NCBI GenBank assembly: GCA_903875425.1
Contig: CAIQWC010000043.1
Coordinates: forward strand, 2,354-66,353
DNA: 64,000 nucleotides
Source of the DNA: an uncultured Actinomycetes bacterium
GTDB lineage: Bacteria > Actinomycetota > Acidimicrobiia > Acidimicrobiales > RAAP-2
Direction of reading: 5' to 3'
A model generated the notes under the pieces. That model did no database searches and was not told where the DNA came from. It was given only the letters and a program-made list of their open reading frames with translations. Position numbers and translations under genes: made by a program. Positions 28,998 through 36,290 of the stretch are shown here, one piece after another (positions within the stretch are counted from its first letter, which is position 1; each line of letters starts with the position of its first letter).

Positions 28998-29779
28998 GCA
29001 ACTCCGTGCTGCTTCGCGCCCCAGCTAAGTTGACGTGGAGTCTTGAGGTGGGAGGCCGGGCTGCAAACGGCCTCCACCGCATCGATGCGGAGATGATGAG
29101 TATTGACTTATTCGATGAGATAGTCCTTACCCCCGGTGCTTCGGGGCTGACAATCGCTGGTAGCGACGAGACGACCATGTTGGTGCCCGATGATGAGACG
29201 AATCTCGTGGCCCAAGCACTGAACCTCGCAGGTCGCGAAGCTTCCGCGGTCATTACCAAACGCATTCCCGTCGGTGGAGGTCTCGGTGGCGGCTCCTCTG
29301 ACGCAGCAGCGGTGCTGCGATGGGCGCGGTTCGTTGATTATGACCGAGCGCTGAAACTTGGCTCTGATGTGCCCTTCTGTATCAGCGGCGGGAGAGCTCG
29401 GGTTAGAGGATTCGGTGAGGAGGTAGAGGTCCTTCGTCACCTAGATCGTTCCGTGGTGCTGTGCCTCGTTCCCCTCGGCGTCAACACCGCCGCGGTCTAC
29501 CAAGTTTTTGATGAACTCGATCAATCAGGCACCTTGCGTCGAGGTCGTAACGATCTCAGTCACGCGGCCTATCTCGTGGAACCACGTCTTGAGCGTGTGG
29601 CTCAAGAACTTAGCGCTCTGAGTGGCGCTGAAGTGGTGGTCGCAGGATCGGGGTCCACCCTGTTCGTCGAGGGCACGAAGGCGCAACACGGTTTGGGAGG
29701 GATGGACACGCTGTGTGTGGACGGCCTCGAGTGCCGCTTAGTGGAGTGTGTAAGCGTGAAGCCTGAGGATATCGAGTAA
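28994..29779 (+). CDS. ispE: 4-diphosphocytidyl-2-C-methyl-D-erythritol kinase
   Basis: APAKLTWSL at the N-terminus and the GHMP motif IPVGGGLGGGSSDAAAVL. The GTG start overlaps the rsmA stop. Confidence 0.85.
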   Translation: MSNSVLLRAPAKLTWSLEVGGRAANGLHRIDAEMMSIDLFDEIVLTPGASGLTIAGSDETTMLVPDDETNLVAQALNLAGREASAVITKRIPVGGGLGGGSSDAAAVLRWARFVDYDRALKLGSDVPFCISGGRARVRGFGEEVEVLRHLDRSVVLCLVPLGVNTAAVYQVFDELDQSGTLRRGRNDLSHAAYLVEPRLERVAQELSALSGAEVVVAGSGSTLFVEGTKAQHGLGGMDTLCVDGLECRLVECVSVKPEDIE

Positions 29780-29785
29780 CGACGC

Positions 29786-29803
29786 AGGTGCGAAGAAGCA
29801 CCT
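29786..29803. terminator. Hairpin between convergent ispE and bS22 (possible bidirectional terminator)
   Basis: AGGTGC-GAAGAA-GCACCT has a 6-bp stem. It is the only intergenic structure between the two convergent stops. No U-tract. Confidence 0.3.
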
Positions 29804-29817
29804 CTCGAGAATCGTGA

Positions 29818-29919
29818 CTACTTACCTGCTGCGCGACGCTGCCAGCGAGTGGCCTTCAGCATCTTCTTGTGCTTCTTCTTGCGCATGCGCTTGCGGCGCT
29901 TCTTGATTAGCGATCCCAT
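29818..29919 (-). CDS. 30S ribosomal protein bS22 (33 aa; too short for the ORF track)
   Basis: The reverse strand reads MGSLIKKRRKRMRKKKHKKMLKATRWQRRAAGK, nearly the MGS[VL]IKKRRKRM.KKKH[KR]K.L signature I recall for mycobacterial bS22. An AAGGTGG SD lies 7 nt upstream. Confidence 0.7.
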   Translation of the reverse strand: MGSLIKKRRKRMRKKKHKKMLKATRWQRRAAGK

Positions 29920-29938
29920 GAGGGTGCCACCTTACTTG

Positions 29939-30184
29939 CTAGCGCCGGGTAGAGCCAACCCGGCGGTTGGCCTCAACGGCGCTGGCCTTAATGGAAAGCG
30001 CCTGGCGGGGGCATTGCCGCACGGCCATTTCGGCGTGAGCCTTGGCGGCACCAGAGACGGCGCCTCGAATAATGGGGTAGCCCCAAGGGTCAAGAGCGAT
30101 GATTTCAGGTGCGATCTCAGCACAGTGGCCGTAGGCGTCGCACTTAATGGGGTCCACGATGAGGGTGAGGAGTCGCTTGGCCAT
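29939..30184 (-). CDS. Small ferredoxin (single [3Fe-4S]/[4Fe-4S] cluster type)
   Basis: VDPIKCDAYGHCAEIAPE ... AVRQCPRQAL, which is the C-x5-C ... CP pattern of actinobacterial Fdx-type ferredoxins. Confidence 0.65.
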   Translation of the reverse strand: MAKRLLTLIVDPIKCDAYGHCAEIAPEIIALDPWGYPIIRGAVSGAAKAHAEMAVRQCPRQALSIKASAVEANRRVGSTRR

Positions 30185-31449
30185 TAGAAAAGATCCTCCT
30201 GATCGGGTAGGTGTAGATAGGTTTTCGAGCCCACCCGGCCACAGGTACGTGCTTGCTGGTGGGTGGCAAGATCGTCAGCAAAGACCTCAAGCGCAGTACG
30301 TACCATGCGGATGACGCCATCGGGGTGAGCGCAGGCACCGCGCCCCTCGAGCACGTCGGTGAGGTCCAAGATCGATCGGTCAGCCCTAGCACTGTGGCGA
30401 CCCGACGCCAAGGCTTCGAGCTGATCTGCCATGTTGGGTAACCCGAACAAGCAAGGTCCGCACTGCCCGGCTGATTCATTGGCCATCCAGCGAGTAATTC
30501 GAGCTGTTTCGACCAAAGGACAGACGTCGTCGCCGAGGGCGATAATGATGCCCGCGCCGAGGTTGCCTCCAAAAGGTGCCACGCCCGCTACTGAATAGGG
30601 CGCGTCGAGTGCTGCAGCTGATACCCAAGTTCCGCCATAGCCACCGAGCAACAGACCCGATATCGCTCCTTGTGGGTTCGCCAATTGTACGATGTCGGCC
30701 ACCGTAGTACCGAGAGCAATTTCGAAGACGCCAGGGGTTTGGACCGCTCCCGAAACGGTTACCAACGTGGTCTCGGGGGCATGAGCGATGTCCCCCTTTG
30801 CCCACCACGCGCCACCATGTCGAGCAATTAAGGCAACATTGGCACAGGTCTCGGCGTTATCCACAAGGAGAACCCGACTCTTAGCGATCACGGGAGAAGG
30901 CCGAGTAGTGCGGAAGCGAGGTAGGGATACTCCCTCGTCGAGGTAGTGGCCCAGTGCAGTCTCTTCTGAGGCCACGTAGCGACCTTGGGGACGCTCGATC
31001 TCCATGCTGCGTTCTTTGAGACCCCGCCGATCGTTAATGGCTCGCTCCATCAACTGAGCGACACGATCGTTATCATTGGCGATGCAAACCACAACGCGGT
31101 CAGCGTTAATGATGGCGGCAAGCACCTGTGCTCCGTCCAAAATTAGGTGGGGGGCAAAGGTGGCCAGTACCGAGTCCTTTTGACTTGCCGGCTCGCTTTC
31201 CATCAAATTAACTACCATGCGTGCTCGTCGGCGTTGACTGGCTACGTAGGCAACTTTCGTGGCGGTAGGGAAACGACCGCCGCCCCTTCCATCCAAGCCA
31301 GCGGTGGCGAGCTCAGCGAGCATGGCCTCGCTCCATGATGCGTTCGCTTGAGTTGAAGGTACCGCCAGGGTCCCATGGACCTCAAGGTGCTGGGACAAGG
31401 TCAGGGGGCTGGTTGGATTCACTCCTTCCAAGAGTCGATTACCGCTCAT
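30184..31449 (-). CDS. NuoF-like flavoprotein (Complex1_51K / NADH-quinone oxidoreductase-F Fe-S region family)
   Basis: GRGGGRFPTATK (compare GGAGFPTG), VVNLMESEPASQKD (compare CNADEGEPGTFKD), GRYVASEETAL, DNAETCANV and ESAGQCGPCLFG...GACAHPDG (a variant N3 cluster motif whose first Cys is Ala). Confidence 0.7.
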   Translation of the reverse strand: MSGNRLLEGVNPTSPLTLSQHLEVHGTLAVPSTQANASWSEAMLAELATAGLDGRGGGRFPTATKVAYVASQRRRARMVVNLMESEPASQKDSVLATFAPHLILDGAQVLAAIINADRVVVCIANDNDRVAQLMERAINDRRGLKERSMEIERPQGRYVASEETALGHYLDEGVSLPRFRTTRPSPVIAKSRVLLVDNAETCANVALIARHGGAWWAKGDIAHAPETTLVTVSGAVQTPGVFEIALGTTVADIVQLANPQGAISGLLLGGYGGTWVSAAALDAPYSVAGVAPFGGNLGAGIIIALGDDVCPLVETARITRWMANESAGQCGPCLFGLPNMADQLEALASGRHSARADRSILDLTDVLEGRGACAHPDGVIRMVRTALEVFADDLATHQQARTCGRVGSKTYLHLPDQEDLF

Positions 31450-32105
31450 CGCGAGCCTCGCCGTGCCGGCTTAGTTTGGTGATTCTTATTCCGAAGTGAG
31501 CTCACGTGCTCGGCCGCGGCACGGCGATTAAGCATCGTGCTCCCCGGTCCAGTTTTGCCTAATCCGTGGCGTCGCGGTGATTGCCAGATTCGCCACAGTA
31601 GCGACACGCCAACGACGCCTACGCAGATAATGACGAAGAGTTCCATCCACGCAAAACGCATGTCGGTACCAATCATGATGGTGTGAATAACGGCGATGGC
31701 AAAGGATAGGAATGACAGCCAATGGACGAAGCGCCAAGACTCAAACGACATCTTTGCGCGGAGCAAGCTCGTGGCGATGATGGCGATGATGAGGTCTAAG
31801 GCGATGGTACCGAGCGCCACCTTGAGGGGTTTGTACTGCGAGGTAAAGGGAATGACGGCAGAGGCGAGACTGATGTTGACGTAGGAGTCAAGGACTGAGC
31901 CGAGGATGTGAACGACGATGAAAACCACACTGAGCAGGGAGATGCGACGGTGGATCTCCGCAATTGCGAAGCGAGGGACGATACCGTTTCCAATTCGGGT
32001 TGAGGTCGAGATGCCCAGCACCATCACGATCGTTAAGAGTAGGAGTGACACGATACCCGTAGCGCGGGAGGAGTACCAGAGGTAATGCGAGTTCAACGCA
32101 ATCAC
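31446..32105 (-). CDS. Ferric-reductase-like (MsrQ/FRD-type) di-haem transmembrane protein
   Basis: Six hydrophobic helices with two pairs of TM histidines (AEIHRRISLLSVVFIVVHILGS; RFVHWLSFLSFAIAVIHTIMIG). The spacing matches bis-His ligation of two b haems. Confidence 0.7.
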   Translation of the reverse strand: MIALNSHYLWYSSRATGIVSLLLLTIVMVLGISTSTRIGNGIVPRFAIAEIHRRISLLSVVFIVVHILGSVLDSYVNISLASAVIPFTSQYKPLKVALGTIALDLIIAIIATSLLRAKMSFESWRFVHWLSFLSFAIAVIHTIMIGTDMRFAWMELFVIICVGVVGVSLLWRIWQSPRRHGLGKTGPGSTMLNRRAAAEHVSSLRNKNHQTKPARRGSR

Positions 32106-33043
32106 GATCCATCGTCTCCTCTGGGTTCAGCCCAACCACCCACTCGTTCTATAGATCCATCATGTCGCACGAGGCGTGCTTGAGCAGACCGTTGGGCCAA
32201 TTCAAAGATGGCGTCCTCGCCCCAGATGATTGCGGCAGTGCTGAGGGCATTTGCTTCCAGAGTTGTTGGCGCGACCACACTCACTAGGGTCCAAGGCGTT
32301 AGTGCGCTTGCGCCCGTTCGGGGATCAATGATGTGGTGGACTCTTTGGCCTGACCGCTGCCAGCTGCGCACCATGGAGGACGAACTCGCCACCCCGCCCA
32401 TGCTTAGGCTCACGATTTCTGTGATCTCAGCGGCTGCGAGGCCATGTTTAGCGCTCGCGGCGATACCAATAGGCCAACCTCCTGCCGGGGCCGGGCCCGC
32501 AATCCTAAGATCACCGCCAAGATCGACAAGGACGCCACAGCCAAGCTCCGCGGCGATTGCTGTGGCGCTGGCATCGGCCGCGACGGCCTTGGCACTTGCG
32601 CCAAGGTCTATGGTGACCCCCTCGGCCAAGGTGACGAGATGGTCATCGATACCGATTGCCGACCAACCTGGTGCTGGCATCGTCGCTGGAGCAGCGTCGT
32701 CGGTCGCGACTATGGCGTCAAAGTCCCGGTCGTAACCGAGCGCCACGAGGGCACCGAGCACCGTAGGGTCACAGAGCCCATCAGTGAGCTCGTAACCATG
32801 TCTGGCCTGAACCAAGAGTTCCAAAAACCAAGGAGAAGCGCTGAGGGTTCCGGCTGCATTGAGTTGAGAGATCTCGCTATTGGTATCGAAGCGGCTCGCA
32901 GATTTGCTGGTGGCTTCGAGAACGACATCAAGTAACTGTCGCGCTCTGGGGAGTGCCGTACTGTCGGAAGTCGCGATCGCGGCGCTGGTGCCCCAGATGG
33001 AGAAGTGTTCGATTCCCAGGCTGCTGAGCGACGAATCGCTCAC
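32102..33043 (-). CDS. apbE: FAD:protein FMN transferase (ApbE family)
   Basis: SRFDTNSEISQLN, CDPTVLGALVALGYDRDF, DLGASAKAVAAD and VASSSSMVRSW are consistent with ApbE. The GTG start overlaps the upstream stop (GTGA). Confidence 0.75.
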   Translation of the reverse strand: MSDSSLSSLGIEHFSIWGTSAAIATSDSTALPRARQLLDVVLEATSKSASRFDTNSEISQLNAAGTLSASPWFLELLVQARHGYELTDGLCDPTVLGALVALGYDRDFDAIVATDDAAPATMPAPGWSAIGIDDHLVTLAEGVTIDLGASAKAVAADASATAIAAELGCGVLVDLGGDLRIAGPAPAGGWPIGIAASAKHGLAAAEITEIVSLSMGGVASSSSMVRSWQRSGQRVHHIIDPRTGASALTPWTLVSVVAPTTLEANALSTAAIIWGEDAIFELAQRSAQARLVRHDGSIERVGGWAEPRGDDGS

Positions 33044-33477
33044 GAGCCGCCAGTGACGACGACGGGTGCAGGAGCAGGAGCAGGGACCGTCGTAGGAACT
33101 GTTGCCGGAGTGGGTGCAGGAGCTGGGGTCGTGGCTTGGGCAGGCGCAGGAGCTGGCGTCGTGCCCCCGGTCCCCGTTGAACCCGATGGAGCTGGAGTCG
33201 TGCCCCCGGTCCCCGTTGAACCCGATGGAGCTGGAGTCGTGCCCCCGGTCCCCGTTGAACCCGATGGAGCTGGAGTCGTGCCCCCGGTCCCCGTTGAACC
33301 CGATAGCCCGCTCGCACCCTGGCTTGCTGACGCGGAGGTGCTTGAGGTGTTAGCGGTCTTTCCGGCGTAGGCATTCCCGACGAACACGGTCATGAAGCCC
33401 ACCAGGGCAATACTGCCCAGGGTTGCCACCGTGGATGTCGCCTTGATGACTGCATTGCCGTTGATTCGAGATTGCAT
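33040..33477 (-). CDS. Secreted low-complexity Thr/Gly/Pro-rich protein with 4 x 13-aa tandem repeats
   Basis: ATG 33477 lies behind a GAGGA SD. The signal-peptide-like N-terminus is MQSRINGNAVIKATSTVATLGSIALVGFMTVFVGNAYA|GK. Then come (PSGSTGTGGTTPA)x4 and a PAPA/TVP tail. Its stop overlaps the apbE start. The track ORF begins at GTG 33516. Confidence 0.6.
   Translation of the reverse strand: MQSRINGNAVIKATSTVATLGSIALVGFMTVFVGNAYAGKTANTSSTSASASQGASGLSGSTGTGGTTPAPSGSTGTGGTTPAPSGSTGTGGTTPAPSGSTGTGGTTPAPAPAQATTPAPAPTPATVPTTVPAPAPAPVVVTGGS
33149..33304. repeat. Tandem repeat, 4 x 39 nt (in-frame, coding)
   Basis: The units 33149-33187, 33188-33226, 33227-33265 and 33266-33304 read GGAGCTGGAGTCGTGCCCCCGGTCCCCGTTGAACCCGAT. 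Units 2-4 are identical and unit 1 differs at one base (33157). Confidence 0.95.
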
Positions 33478-33544
33478 GGTTTCCTCTTTCGGTTCCCTCC
33501 CAGTATCAGTGGTCACTGTAAGGAAACAATGGGGAATATCTAAG

Positions 33545-33568
33545 AAGCAGTGAAGAATTGCACTGCTT
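33545..33568 (-). terminator. 8-bp hairpin between the two repeat-protein genes (terminator/attenuator candidate)
   Basis: AAGCAGTG-(8 nt)-CACTGCTT. On the minus strand it is followed by CUUAGAUAUU. It lies 43 nt after the stop of the 33611..34171 gene. Confidence 0.35.
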
Positions 33569-33610
33569 GACGGATGCGCTTGCGACTAATTTCGCCTAGC
33601 AGGTCACGAA

Positions 33611-34171
33611 TTAGTCGTCGGAATTACCACCGTGGCCCTCATATGAGGGACTTTGATTTCCAGTCTCGGAATTACCACCGTGGCCCTCATATGAGGGACT
33701 TTGATTTCCAGTCTCGGAACTGCTCTCTGACCCGGTGCTAGAGGATCCCGCTGATTCAGCCGAATTTTGCCCTCCGATACCGCCTTCGACCTTGTTCCCA
33801 GCGTCGTCGCTTCCTTGGGCCGCACTTATATTTGCAGTGGGCGTTGCGCTAGGGGTCTGCTGCGTTTTTGCGATCGCAGCCAGTGGGACATTCCTTGGGG
33901 TGCTCGAAGGAGTCGCCGTCGTGGCTATCGAGCTCGGAACCTTGGCTGGCGTACCAGCACGTGGGCTCTGAATGGACGACGGTGTGCTGCCTGGGGCGGT
34001 ACTCGGCGCCGCACTCGGCGCGGGGGATGTTGTCGCAGCCACTCCTGCCTGCTTGGCGGTGTTGACCTGCCCGGCTAGGACTACCATGACGCCAGCGAGC
34101 ACCACGGCAGCGATGACGGTGGTTGAGGCCGCGGCCTTGCCAACGAGTTTTTTCTTTGAGTAAGCGCCCAT
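33611..34171 (-). CDS. Membrane-anchored, intrinsically disordered Ser/Thr/Ala/Pro-rich protein with C-terminal 2 x 16-aa His-containing repeats
   Basis: A strong SD (AGGAGG) lies 4 nt before ATG 34171. The N-terminus is KKKLVGKAAASTTVIAAVVLAGVMVVLAG (anchor/signal). The remainder is low complexity and ends with (SETGNQSPSYEGHGGN)x2 SDD. Confidence 0.55.
   Translation of the reverse strand: MGAYSKKKLVGKAAASTTVIAAVVLAGVMVVLAGQVNTAKQAGVAATTSPAPSAAPSTAPGSTPSSIQSPRAGTPAKVPSSIATTATPSSTPRNVPLAAIAKTQQTPSATPTANISAAQGSDDAGNKVEGGIGGQNSAESAGSSSTGSESSSETGNQSPSYEGHGGNSETGNQSPSYEGHGGNSDD
33620..33715. repeat. Tandem repeat, 2 x 48 nt, identical (in-frame, coding)
   Basis: 33620-33667 and 33668-33715 are identical (GGAATTACCACCGTGGCCCTCATATGAGGGACTTTGATTTCCAGTCTC). 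The first 4 nt of a third unit follow. Confidence 0.95.
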
Positions 34172-34272
34172 GGTGCCTCCTAACCTCTTGACGTTTCCTC
34201 TCTATTATCCACCAAGGGTTGGCGGAAGAGCCGTCGAAACGATAAGAATTCGCGAAGAATTGATCGTGTCAG

Positions 34273-35619
34273 CTAGGAAATGGTGGGCAAGGTCATGCGC
34301 AGGTGGGCGCCACCACCGGGAACATTGAATGCCTCAATGGATCCGTTTTCGTCCTCGACGACCTCAGCGACGATCGAGAGGCCCAGCCCTGAACCCGGCA
34401 GTGCACGCGCCTCGTCTGATCGGTAGAAGCGGTCGAAGATTCTAGTGAGATCCGTTTCTTTGATACCCGGTCCTTGGTCGATAACGTCCAACACACCATG
34501 TGACAAGGTGACGCGGACGGTTGCGTTATCAGGTGAGAACTTAAGGGCATTGGAAAACAAGTTGGAGATCGCGCGGTGAACACGGTCTCGGTGAATAAAC
34601 ACTTTGGTCGGCTCTAGGTCAGCGTCGAAGGAGATCCCTCGTGCTCGGCCATGGGCGTTAAAGACGTCGACGAGCAACTGAACCATTTCATCGAGATCTT
34701 CCGAGGTCAATATCGAATCTGTCTTGCCCGATCTAGCCAGTTCCGTGATGTCTCCGAGCAGACTGGTCATTTCATCGACCTGCGTCATCACGTCATTGAG
34801 GAGCTGGCGGCGATCATCTTCGCTCAGGCGATCGAACTGTTGGAGCACCTGGGCGTTGGTGCGCATCGACGTCAGTGGTGTACGTAGTTCGTGGCTGGCA
34901 TCGAGGACAAGCTGGCGTTGTTGGATTTGACTTCGGTCAAGTGCCGCGAGCATACGGTTGAAGCTACGTCGGAGACTACCGAGTTCGTCTTTGCCACCCT
35001 CTTCGAGCCGCTGGGTGACGTCAGTGGTTTCCGCTAGTACCTCTATGCCTTCGGTCACATCATTGAGCGGCCGGATAACGAGTCGAGCAACCAGCCAACC
35101 GAAGAAGGCGGCCAGTAAGGTGCCGAGAATTGCGACTCCAAGAAGGGCAATTTCTAAGCGACGGAGCTGATGATCGATGCCGTTGAGCGGTACGGCTAGT
35201 TGCATGACGCCTGTAGTCGTGAGTTGCATACCCTCTTGCTCTTGGTTGATCATTTGCCCAGCGGGTAATGGGATAAGCAGTTCTCGATAGTAAGCACCGT
35301 GGATGGTAACGGTGACATAGACCTCATCGCGGAGGCCATCAGCTACTGATTTAGTAACGGGACCAACGGGGAGTCTGCCAAACGGTGATGACGTCACAAC
35401 GGCGCCACTGGCATCAGCTACTTGGAAGATGGCACCGCCGAGCCCATCAGTGTTGATCTCCGTGGCGCGAGTGATCTGCGTGGCCAATGCCGAGAGAGAA
35501 TCGTCAGCCGACGATACGAGTGAGTTGCGTGCGACGTACCAGGCTCCCGCGCAGGCCACAATCACGGCAAAGGCAACCGCCAGAGAGGTGGCAACAATAA
35601 TTCGGAGTCGAAACGTCAC
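34273..35619 (-). CDS. Sensor histidine kinase (two TM segments, HAMP, HisKA, HATPase_c)
   Basis: H-box [12 protein letters not shown]-box [14 protein letters not shown]1 DQGPGI and G2 GSGLGLSIV. It overlaps the response-regulator stop. Confidence 0.85.
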
Positions 35620-36290
35620 GACTCGCGCAGTGAGTAGCCGATGCCGCGGACTGTCTGGATAAGACGTGCGTCACCGTTATCTTCGAGTTTGCGGCGAAGG
35701 TAGCCCACGTATACAGCGAGCGAATTAGTACCTGAATCAAAGTCGTATCCCCAGACACGATCAAGAATCTGTTCACGGGTCAGTACCTGCCGCGGGTTCT
35801 CTAAGAACATTTCAAGGAGATCGAATTCGATTTTGGTAAGCGGAAATGATCGATCGCCCCGCTTGGCTTCGCGGGTGGCCACATCTAAGGATAAGTCCTC
35901 AAAGCGAAGAAGCTCAGCGCTGGCGCCGGCCATGCGACGGCGGAGTAACGCACGCAGTCGAGCGAAGAGCTCGGCTAGGTCAAAAGGCTTGGGCATGTAG
36001 TCGTCTGCTCCCGCATCGAGCCCCTCAACGCGATCGTCAACGGCGCCTCGGGCGGTCAGCATCAACACGGGTGTCATATCGCCGAGAGAACGTAAGCGGC
36101 GACAAACCTCAAGGCCGTCGATGTCGGGCATTTGGAGGTCAAGAATGACGGCATCAGGCGCTCGCTGACTCAAGATGCGTAAGGCCTCGGTGCCGTTAGC
36201 TGCGAGGTCGACCTCATAGCCCTCGAGAACGAGGGCGCGTCGCAGAGAATCTCGAACTGCTTGGTCATCATCAACGACGAGAATGTTCAC
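35616..36290 (-). CDS. OmpR/PhoB-family response regulator
   Basis: Receiver domain [16 protein letters not shown]...[11 protein letters not shown]...LTARG. Winged-helix output [33 protein letters not shown]. Confidence 0.9.

Follow-up and report, generated by a model that had tools for sequence, protein, structure and literature searches.

A 64,000-nucleotide (nt) stretch of contig CAIQWC010000043.1, from an uncultured bacterium of the Acidimicrobiales, was analysed and is denoted here as the window. Its minus strand carries, at 33040..33477, a small gene for a protein of 145 residues (the tail protein), which is made of a basic N-terminus, a hydrophobic helix, an uncharged disordered tail and a C-terminal T-G-G-S. 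The next gene encodes ApbE, an enzyme that moves the flavin mononucleotide (FMN) part of flavin adenine dinucleotide (FAD) to the last Ser or Thr of a D-x-x-[S/T]-G-A-[S/T] motif (PMC12052999). Judging from its sequence and from that of its relatives, we propose that the tail protein is probably a domain-less "natural flavin-tag" substrate of ApbE. According to this proposal, the adjoining ApbE would pass FAD's FMN portion on to the terminal Ser145, and the FMN-bearing tail protein would be the flavin carrier otherwise missing from the operon. The source assembly looks like a metagenome bin, with 46 contigs and 1.61 Mb, and is 97.7% complete.

A conserved motif at the C-terminus

The first piece of evidence concerns the end of the protein, P-V-V-V-T-G-G-S-COOH (33043..33066, minus strand), which includes the proposed FMN site, Ser145, and whose motif is conserved in relatives. 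The apbE loci of 40 relatives were collected and the frame ending at the apbE start was inspected. At the genus and family level, approximately 22 of 27 loci had a small open reading frame (ORF) ending in [ST]-G-x-[ST] (the endings were read by eye), and the endings found in the family were TGGS, SGGS, TGAS, SGAS, TGQS or TGVS. A genome of the same genus (G001) has two small ORFs upstream of apbE, of 99 and 165 residues, that finish in ...AVSGGS and ...AFSGGS; their starts are MQSRRNGNAIIK and MRSRNNGSKAIK, and both contain one hydrophobic helix and a Ser/Thr-rich tail. In a neighbouring genus (G013), the small ORF ends in ...TTTGGS. A wider scan, using an alignment of five ApbE sequences and one genome per species, yielded 80 more loci, mostly from Acidimicrobiia and also from Solirubrobacterales, Gaiellales, Nocardia, Mycobacterium, Streptomyces, Amycolatopsis and Dormibacterota. 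The exact C-terminal [ST]-G-x-[ST] was present in 40 of these 80 (in Actinomycetota and Dormibacterota), and about a dozen more had it one to four residues from the end.

A filter that demanded a hydrophobic helix and a tail with at least 60% small or polar residues left 76 candidates from 108 loci. The motif was found exactly at the C-terminus in 51 of them and one to four residues from the end in 13, and these 64 proteins constitute the set of relatives referred to below. Within the 51 exact cases, the last position is always occupied by a hydroxylated residue (45 Ser, 6 Thr), as is position -4 (38 Ser, 13 Thr), and position -3 is invariably Gly (51/51). Position -2 admits Gly (24), Ala (17), Gln (8) or Val (2), and Pro or Ala is found at position -8 in 43 of the 51. 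At the position of the Asp in the full ApbE motif, the family presents Val, Ser, His, Pro, Gln or Thr, the window sequence being V-V-V-T-G-G-S. Across the genome, only 2 of the 4613 ORFs of at least 80 residues finish in [ST]G[GAQ][ST]; one is the tail gene and the other looks off-frame.

The notion that the Gly-Gly ending might be a ribosome-binding site for apbE or a slippery site was ruled out by the variety of its codons and its persistence away from apbE. Among the relatives, the Gly of the motif is encoded by GGC (19), GGA (14), GGT (9) and GGG (9), and both Ser codon families as well as Thr codons are used; the motif codons of the window (ACT GGC GGC TCG) and of G001 (TCG GGT GGC TCA) include synonymous differences. 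Moreover, the motif persists in loci with 45-132 nt between the end of the small ORF and apbE, as well as in second paralogs that are followed by another small ORF instead of apbE. The constraint is therefore on the peptide and not on a nucleotide signal, and the comparisons indicate that the C-terminal ending is the functional part of the tail protein. A sequence-only reading of this DNA had raised the idea that the tail protein might be a target of ApbE. This idea is now strongly supported, but at the extreme C-terminal T-G-G-S, which corresponds to a conserved [ST]-G-[GAQ]-[ST]-COOH.

Several variants of this arrangement were observed. A helix-plus-tail protein also comes before apbE in most of eight further paralog loci of greater divergence (L140-L147), and it often has T-[ST]-G-A-[ST] followed by 2-5 residues. 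The larger relatives concerned (G009, G011, G019, G021 and G033) have two to four apbE loci per genome; among the eight loci, an MsrQ-like gene is found in 8/8, NuoF-like and ferredoxin genes in 6/8, and an own tail protein in most. The tail of the divergent paralog copies has a coiled-coil-like segment rich in Ala, Gln and Leu. In five loci (L057, L065, L083, L093 and L119), a variant tail ends in C-x-[ST]-[ST]-[PA]-S-G-x3-4-C-x-COOH instead of [ST]-G-x-[ST]-COOH; the two Cys bracket a loop and likely form a disulfide, which would be consistent with a tail located outside the cytoplasm. In 8 of the 64 relatives, the tail has a second, weak element, L-[QH]-x-P-x-Q-[AP]-P, 10-25 residues before the motif, its carriers belonging to Streptomyces, Amycolatopsis, Solirubrobacterales and Dormibacterota (for instance L112, L123, L114 and L089); in the window, PAPAQATTPAP occupies a similar position.

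An ApbE left without a known kind of substrate

The genome encodes a single ApbE. Across the genome, no match was found to FMN_bind (PF04205), DUF2271, DUF3570 or NqrB/RnfD at E≤1, or to Flavodoxin_4 at E≤0.01, and the sole FMN_red has no counterpart of the C-terminal extension flavinylated in Lactococcus. Since the folds known as ApbE substrates are missing, ApbE is left here without a substrate of a known kind. FMN_bind is also missing in most of 28 relatives that have an ApbE. In a survey published in 2021, which retained only components with a signal peptide or a lipobox, 4% of the genomes with apbE were left without a substrate (PMC8238504).

Only four long ORFs of the genome contain the full pattern D-x-x-[ST]-G-A-[ST]: a protein with a metallo-hydrolase-like HxHxDH site, FtsH, ApbE itself and a GNAT-like protein, none of which is target-like. 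The match within ApbE corresponds to residues 240-246 (window 32305-32325, minus strand), where the conserved signature of the enzyme, HHIIDPRTGAS, fits the substrate pattern, and it is therefore a predictable false positive of motif scans. The GNAT-like cytoplasmic protein, encoded elsewhere in the genome (contig C37, 8778-9482, minus strand), presents D-A-I-T-G-A-T-L, a perfect NqrC-like heptad; it is the only other non-housekeeping full-motif match in the genome, and was judged to be a chance match. The NuoF-like protein of the cassette described below was likewise discarded as a target, as it has VSGAV and thus lacks a motif with a terminal hydroxyl residue.

The gene, its repeat and the length of its tail

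The reading frame of the tail gene runs from the ATG at 33477 to the TGA at 33040-33042. A Shine-Dalgarno-like AGAGGA, read from the sequence (33482..33487, minus strand), lies 4 nt upstream of this ATG, and the MQSR start is common to the tail protein and its ortholog from the same genus, which matches it at start and end (E=1.1e-14); on account of both features, ATG 33477 was preferred over GTG 33516 as the start. The stop of the gene overlaps the GTG start of apbE (GTGA, 33040-33043), as had already been read from the sequence. The protein starts with MQSRINGNAVIKATSTVATLGSIALVGFMTVFVGNAYAGK, continues with LSGSTGTGGTTPA and three copies of PSGSTGTGGTTPA, and finishes with a PA/TVPT stretch (Pro, Ala, Thr and Val) and VVVTGGS before the stop.

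The tandem repeat is found at 33149-33304, with a period of 39, 4.0 copies, 99% matches and a score of 305 in Tandem Repeats Finder. In the coding orientation, units 1-3 are the same, and unit 4 carries a single ACT to ACG change, which is synonymous (Thr). The claim that four 39-nt units differ at one base in total was thus borne out, and that of four 13-residue repeats holds for the DNA; the protein contains three perfect 13-residue units and one beginning with L, so that the four tandem units (33149..33304, minus strand) read (P/L)SGSTGTGGTTPA. Their copy number is that of the draft assembly. These repeats look like a recent in-frame expansion of the spacer, and not like a conserved target in themselves.

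This view is consistent with what was found in other genomes. After the helix, the tail of the window protein has 112 residues, of which 89% are Ser, Thr, Gly, Ala or Pro and 0.9% are charged (Asp, Glu, Lys or Arg). The tails of the relatives are 31 to 131 residues long, with a median of 72 residues, and the medians are 80% for the same five amino acids and 5.8% for charged ones. The 13-residue repeat is missing from both small ORFs of G001, and the spacer cannot be aligned even within the genus (99 residues in G001 vs 145 in the window, for the whole proteins). In addition, a metagenome scan with a conserved N-terminal peptide of ApbE recovered three contigs close to the G013 locus (L132, L133 and L138, compared with L004). 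One of them matches that locus with 99.7% identity over 1440 nt apart from one 60-nt indel, and the other two match it with 97.4% identity apart from one indel of 111 nt. Both of these indels are in frame and fall inside the tail, leaving the N-terminus, the TTGGS end and the neighbouring histidine-kinase gene unchanged. They are direct evidence that the spacer varies in length, in frame, in a sister lineage, and the frame is therefore read through to the terminal motif. The earlier suggestion of a spacer whose length changes by repeat slippage is in this way supported in kind, by the unalignable spacer and by tail indels in a related genus.

Searches for known families gave negative results. 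The 145-residue protein had no match at E≤1e-3 among 5.8 billion protein clusters, and neither it nor the small proteins of seven relatives reached the cut-off of any Pfam or NCBIfam family. A promoter and terminator scan of 29600-34400 gave chance-level results, and the guanine-plus-cytosine content by codon position did not tell the frames apart in the low-complexity tail DNA.

Upstream of the tail gene, the window encodes a second anchored disordered protein (33611-34171, minus strand; 186 residues), with a 48-nt repeat of 2.2 copies at 33613-33719. It sits where G001 has its second tail-tag paralog, which ends in FSGGS; the end here is ...SYEGHGGNSDD, so that the flavinylation-type ending is absent or altered. 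The relative L008 is similar (...ATSGDD).

N-terminus and predicted topology

The hydrophobic core of the tail protein, TVATLGSIALVGFMTVFVG (residues 16-34; 33376..33432, minus strand), has a Kyte-Doolittle mean of 1.89 over 19 residues and may be either a signal anchor or a signal peptide. AlphaFold2, run without an alignment, gave one helix (residues 2-42) and coil elsewhere, and the predicted local distance difference test score stayed below 50 for residues 43-106. The family is homologous at the N-terminus as well, where an alignment of 24 relatives defined the consensus RDxAxxRVRRxTR, followed by the helix and then by H-E-x-P-G-H. The N-terminus of the window protein is in register with this profile (hhalign P=2.8e-4), with IKATS facing VRRTTR and NAYAGK facing HFYPGH; both elements are degenerate in the window lineage (SRINGNAVIKATS; G-N-A-Y-A-G-K; IKATS vs RVRRxTR). 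In the family, the two elements may be docking sites for ApbE or for the MsrQ-like protein.

Net charge is higher before the helix than after it in 61 of the 64 relatives (median +4 vs 0), and this bias, together with the charge-poor Ser/Thr/Pro tail, predicts an N-in/C-out topology for the tail protein. The element that follows the helix is not an A-x-A site in most relatives, and an uncleaved anchor is favoured for this reason over cleavage at AYA|G; we thus lean towards the helix being a retained anchor rather than a cleaved signal peptide. The sequence-only reading had postulated a signal peptide with an AYA|G site: its N-terminal hydrophobic helix is maintained here, and its cleavage is not favoured.

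The cassette and a possible mechanism

The tail gene does not stand alone. Five minus-strand genes, for the tail protein, ApbE, an MsrQ-like protein, a NuoF-like protein and a ferredoxin-like protein, are linked by overlaps of 1-4 nt. ApbE (FAD:protein FMN transferase; 32102..33043, minus strand; 313 residues) matches the Pfam ApbE family with 2.8e-48. It has no signal peptide, as its Pfam domain starts at residue 19 and residue 18 aligns to residue 27 of Thermotoga maritima TM1553 (1vrm). Its frame is open upstream across the repeat and contains no ATG, GTG or TTG before 33043; an ApbE extended through the repeat was ruled out for lack of such a start codon. The MsrQ-like protein, of the ferric-reductase membrane type (31446..32105, minus strand), matches Ferric_reduct (PF01794) with 1.8e-9 and 38.1 bits (cut-off 28), and there is a 4-nt overlap between its gene and the apbE stop. 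Its translation contains H-x13-H and H-x12-H pairs, which we take, from established knowledge on the NOX/FRD superfamily, to denote a dihaem protein. The NuoF-like protein (30184..31449, minus strand) would bind reduced nicotinamide adenine dinucleotide (NADH), FMN and a 4Fe-4S cluster, given its matches to Complex1_51K (6.4e-27), NADH_4Fe-4S (PF10589, 2e-16) and SLBB (6.1e-7); its match to the NCBIfam model nuoF_fam (2.5e-52) remains under the cut-off of that model. Its domains suggest that it is the cytoplasmic electron input of the cassette. The last gene (29939..30184, minus strand), which at its start overlaps the stop of the NuoF-like gene by a single base, encodes 81 residues with a Cys pattern from which we infer a ferredoxin.

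The MsrQ-like, NuoF-like and ferredoxin genes were found in all 45 of the motif-bearing loci for which 3.5-kb flanks were available. The tail-protein ORF is genuine and opens a cassette of five genes whose translation is coupled. A sensor kinase and response regulator pair (34273-36290, minus strand) is encoded in the window immediately upstream of the genes for tail proteins. The same kinase is located upstream in G001 and in the G013 lineage (L003, L004, L132 and L133), a conserved co-location that suggests a possible role in regulation.

How these components might work together can be outlined as follows. Modification would most likely occur in the cytoplasm, because this ApbE has no signal peptide, and it would take place before translocation of the short unfolded chain, which would also avoid FAD export. 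Electrons would then pass from NADH, through the NuoF-like protein and the ferredoxin, to the two haems of the MsrQ-like protein, and from there to the tethered flavin outside, which would hand them at the tip of the tether to an extracytoplasmic acceptor. The repeats would lengthen the tail to its 112 residues, the family median being 72. The complete model is tentative, and we regard it as rather doubtful in its entirety. It holds that a signal-less cytoplasmic ApbE loads FMN on the last residue of a peptide without a fold, that the chain is subsequently exported unfolded with no need for external FAD, and that it forms a membrane-anchored, wall-spanning "fishing line" that brings electrons from the MsrQ-like haems to acceptors outside, with its reach adjusted by the in-frame gain and loss of repeats, such as the 4 x 13-residue expansion seen in the window.

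Weighing the proposal and its alternatives

A number of points weigh against the proposal that the tail protein is a flavin-tag substrate. The core [S/T]-G-A-[S/T] with its last hydroxyl is represented by T-G-G-S at residues 142-145, with Gly and not Ala at the third position, hence immediately before the target Ser, and the Asp of D-x-x-[ST]-G-A-[ST] is lacking; relatives also use Gln, Val or Ser before the target residue. When the motif was mutated in previous work, the change of Asp to Ala had a minor effect, those of Gly to Ala and of Ala to Val left approximately 50% flavinylation, and Ser was accepted as the target (PMC12052999). The charge bias of the window protein itself is weak (+2 before the helix vs +1 after it). 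Neither its 145-residue form nor a 158-residue form is present in large protein collections, which thereby provide no independent gene call, same-species variant or public name. In addition, a signal-less ApbE is combined with a tail predicted to be outside, which would require flavinylation before export or another export route for ApbE, and an FMN-bearing C-terminus would have to be translocated. A flavin on the tail protein or on any family member is a prediction from sequence. Finally, the composition of the tail makes short S/T-G-x-S/T strings common, and for this reason it is positional conservation alone that carries weight.

The matter of composition bears directly on the possibility that the chain is a multi-flavin string, in which the terminal site and the four TGGT elements of the repeat are all flavinylated, giving up to five flavins per disordered chain. 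The protein does contain five matches to [ST]G[GAQ][ST], at residues 64, 77, 90, 103 and 142, and its four internal TGGT motifs exceed the 1.05 expected from composition; multi-flavinylated proteins with several FMN_bind domains are also known (PMC10339131). However, this excess is explained by the copying of one unit, and the ortholog of the same genus has no such repeat. The tails of the 64 relatives contain 23 internal motifs, compared with 21.1 expected from shuffled tails, and 48 of them have none. The internal sites are, besides, followed by TPA and not by the end of the chain. The multi-flavin string is hence very unlikely, and the earlier idea that the SGST/TGGT repeats are multi-site targets of ApbE was not supported in that form by this comparison. 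The frame itself could also be questioned, assuming that the small ORF is a frameshifted or mis-assembled leader of ApbE, or that it arose by chance in repeat DNA rich in GC: none of the three minus-strand frames is interrupted across the repeat, ApbE normally has a signal peptide, which the small ORF would supply, and the assembly is a draft. This explanation is hardly credible, since the two-ORF arrangement is seen again in over 70 related loci, where the spacing varies between -132 and +34 nt and the relative frame is not constant. As described above, no start codon precedes 33043 in the ApbE frame, and every indel that separates near-identical loci preserves the frame of the small ORF; when the first 36 codons of the window gene and of G001 are compared, codon position 2 has the fewest substitutions (12/6/15). 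The conserved frame is therefore that of the called ORF and not the alternative at 32928..33374, whose conservation in relatives the sequence-only reading had contemplated.

Two other explanations accept the gene and give it a function other than that of the flavin carrier. The tail protein might be an O-glycosylated, mucin-like envelope spacer with a structural or protective role, its adjacency to apbE reflecting co-regulation only. The composition of the tail, its location in a region exported by the predicted topology and its variable length would fit, as would the four matches to the glycosyltransferase family PMT_2 (PF13231) in the genome. Such a spacer would, however, leave unexplained why selection on the protein maintains an invariant S/T-G-x-S/T at the C-terminus, why the gene is strictly linked to apbE cassettes and what the orphan ApbE acts upon. 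PMT (PF02366), moreover, has no match in the genome at E≤0.1. We deem the spacer unlikely as a full account; glycosylation of the spacer and flavinylation of its tip are mutually compatible. Alternatively, the protein could be a docking or assembly partner, whose motif occupies the active site of ApbE like a pseudo-substrate, or else attaches to the MsrQ-like protein, and which holds ApbE at the membrane or assembles the complex. ApbE has no membrane-targeting signal of its own, and the conserved RDxAxxRVRRxTR and post-helix H-E-x-P-G-H suggest protein-protein contacts. Yet the last-position hydroxyl is kept in 51/51, as for a true acceptor, the other candidate substrates are missing from the genome, and docking would not need a long uncharged spacer; we consider a purely docking role improbable. 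The reading of the tail protein as a flavin-tag substrate is thus the one retained here.

Relation to known systems

The closest parallel to the proposed flavin-tag substrate is an artificial one. The minimal ApbE motif comprises seven residues, of which the last is the modified Ser or Thr, and it can serve as a tag, best of all when placed at a protein terminus (PMC12052999; PMC9400968). In the engineered Flavin-tag, of 7-12 residues, a short unstructured terminal peptide is enough for FMN to be placed on the last Ser or Thr, without a flavin-binding fold (PMC12052999; PMC9400968), and the reaction is carried out in Escherichia coli by a cytoplasmic, signal-less ApbE. Cytosolic ApbEs are known to exist (PMC12052999). 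The engineered tag is derived from NqrC (GVDGLSGATLTS; minimal form D-x-x-[ST]-G-A-[ST]), whereas the sequence found in the window is natural, lacks the Asp, has Gly (Gln or Val in relatives) in place of Ala and is located at the very end of the polypeptide, its modification being predicted only. A natural case of comparable kind is FMN_red, whose unstructured C-terminal extension is flavinylated (10.1101/2024.03.13.584918). As described by Huang et al. in 2024 (10.1101/2024.03.13.584918; PMC11334425), its motif also lies on a disordered C-terminal segment and its gene is adjacent to apbE; unlike in the window protein, which has no globular domain, the tail folds back onto the flavin site of a globular FMN_red.

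With respect to gene content, the cassette resembles the NuoF-like subtype of the MsrQ-like clusters defined by Meheust et al. in 2021 (PMC8238504), which contain apbE, a PF01794 cytochrome and a NuoF-like protein (PF10589), and for which NAD(P)H was proposed as the cytosolic donor of transmembrane electron transfer. That survey reported 31 MsrQ-like clusters with a NuoF-like protein, and a gene with an FMN-binding domain is typical of such clusters (PMC8238504). In contrast, the genome studied here has no FMN_bind anywhere, its ApbE lacks a signal peptide, and the first gene of the cassette encodes a domain-less tail protein, which is unmentioned in PMC8238504. The same work described a small exported protein in apbE clusters with a DUF3570 carrier, whose only strongly conserved feature is likewise a redox-relevant motif at the extreme C-terminus (PMC8238504). 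In that case, the motif is a Cys pair and not a flavinylation site, and the protein belongs to a defined Pfam family.

Our literature search found no paper on domain-less ApbE substrates with a tail motif, and no Pfam or NCBIfam model represents them. In a more general sense, lipoyl, biotinyl and phosphopantetheinyl domains are swinging-arm carriers, in which a covalent cofactor on a flexible tether shuttles between partners. By analogy, the tail protein would differ from these in that their attachment domain is folded, and cytoplasmic or within complexes, while its own tether would be wholly disordered and is predicted to be extracytoplasmic. What the window adds is a recent lengthening of the tail by a near-perfect repeat of four 39-nt units in a streamlined genome of 1.6 Mb, together with the in-frame change of tail length in a sister lineage.

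Significance

So far, the sites known to be flavinylated by ApbE are confined to folded carrier domains and to tails that bend back onto a flavoprotein. If the proposal is true, a membrane anchor joined through a disordered spacer to a terminal motif of four residues would constitute a new kind of redox-cofactor carrier, and it would raise the question of how a protein modified by a cytoplasmic enzyme gets outside. The natural variants of the ending, such as TGGS, SGAS and TGQS, provide test cases for the specificity of ApbE and for shorter flavin tags. The finding would also account for part of the "orphan" apbE genomes of the 2021 survey (PMC8238504), and would supply the missing acceptor of the electron-export clusters formed by MsrQ-like proteins of the NuoF-like subtype. 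The retention of the cassette in a streamlined 1.6-Mb genome, and its presence in up to several copies in larger genomes of Actinomycetota, suggest that it is physiologically important for these bacteria, where it might conceivably serve in iron reduction or in other extracytoplasmic redox chemistry.

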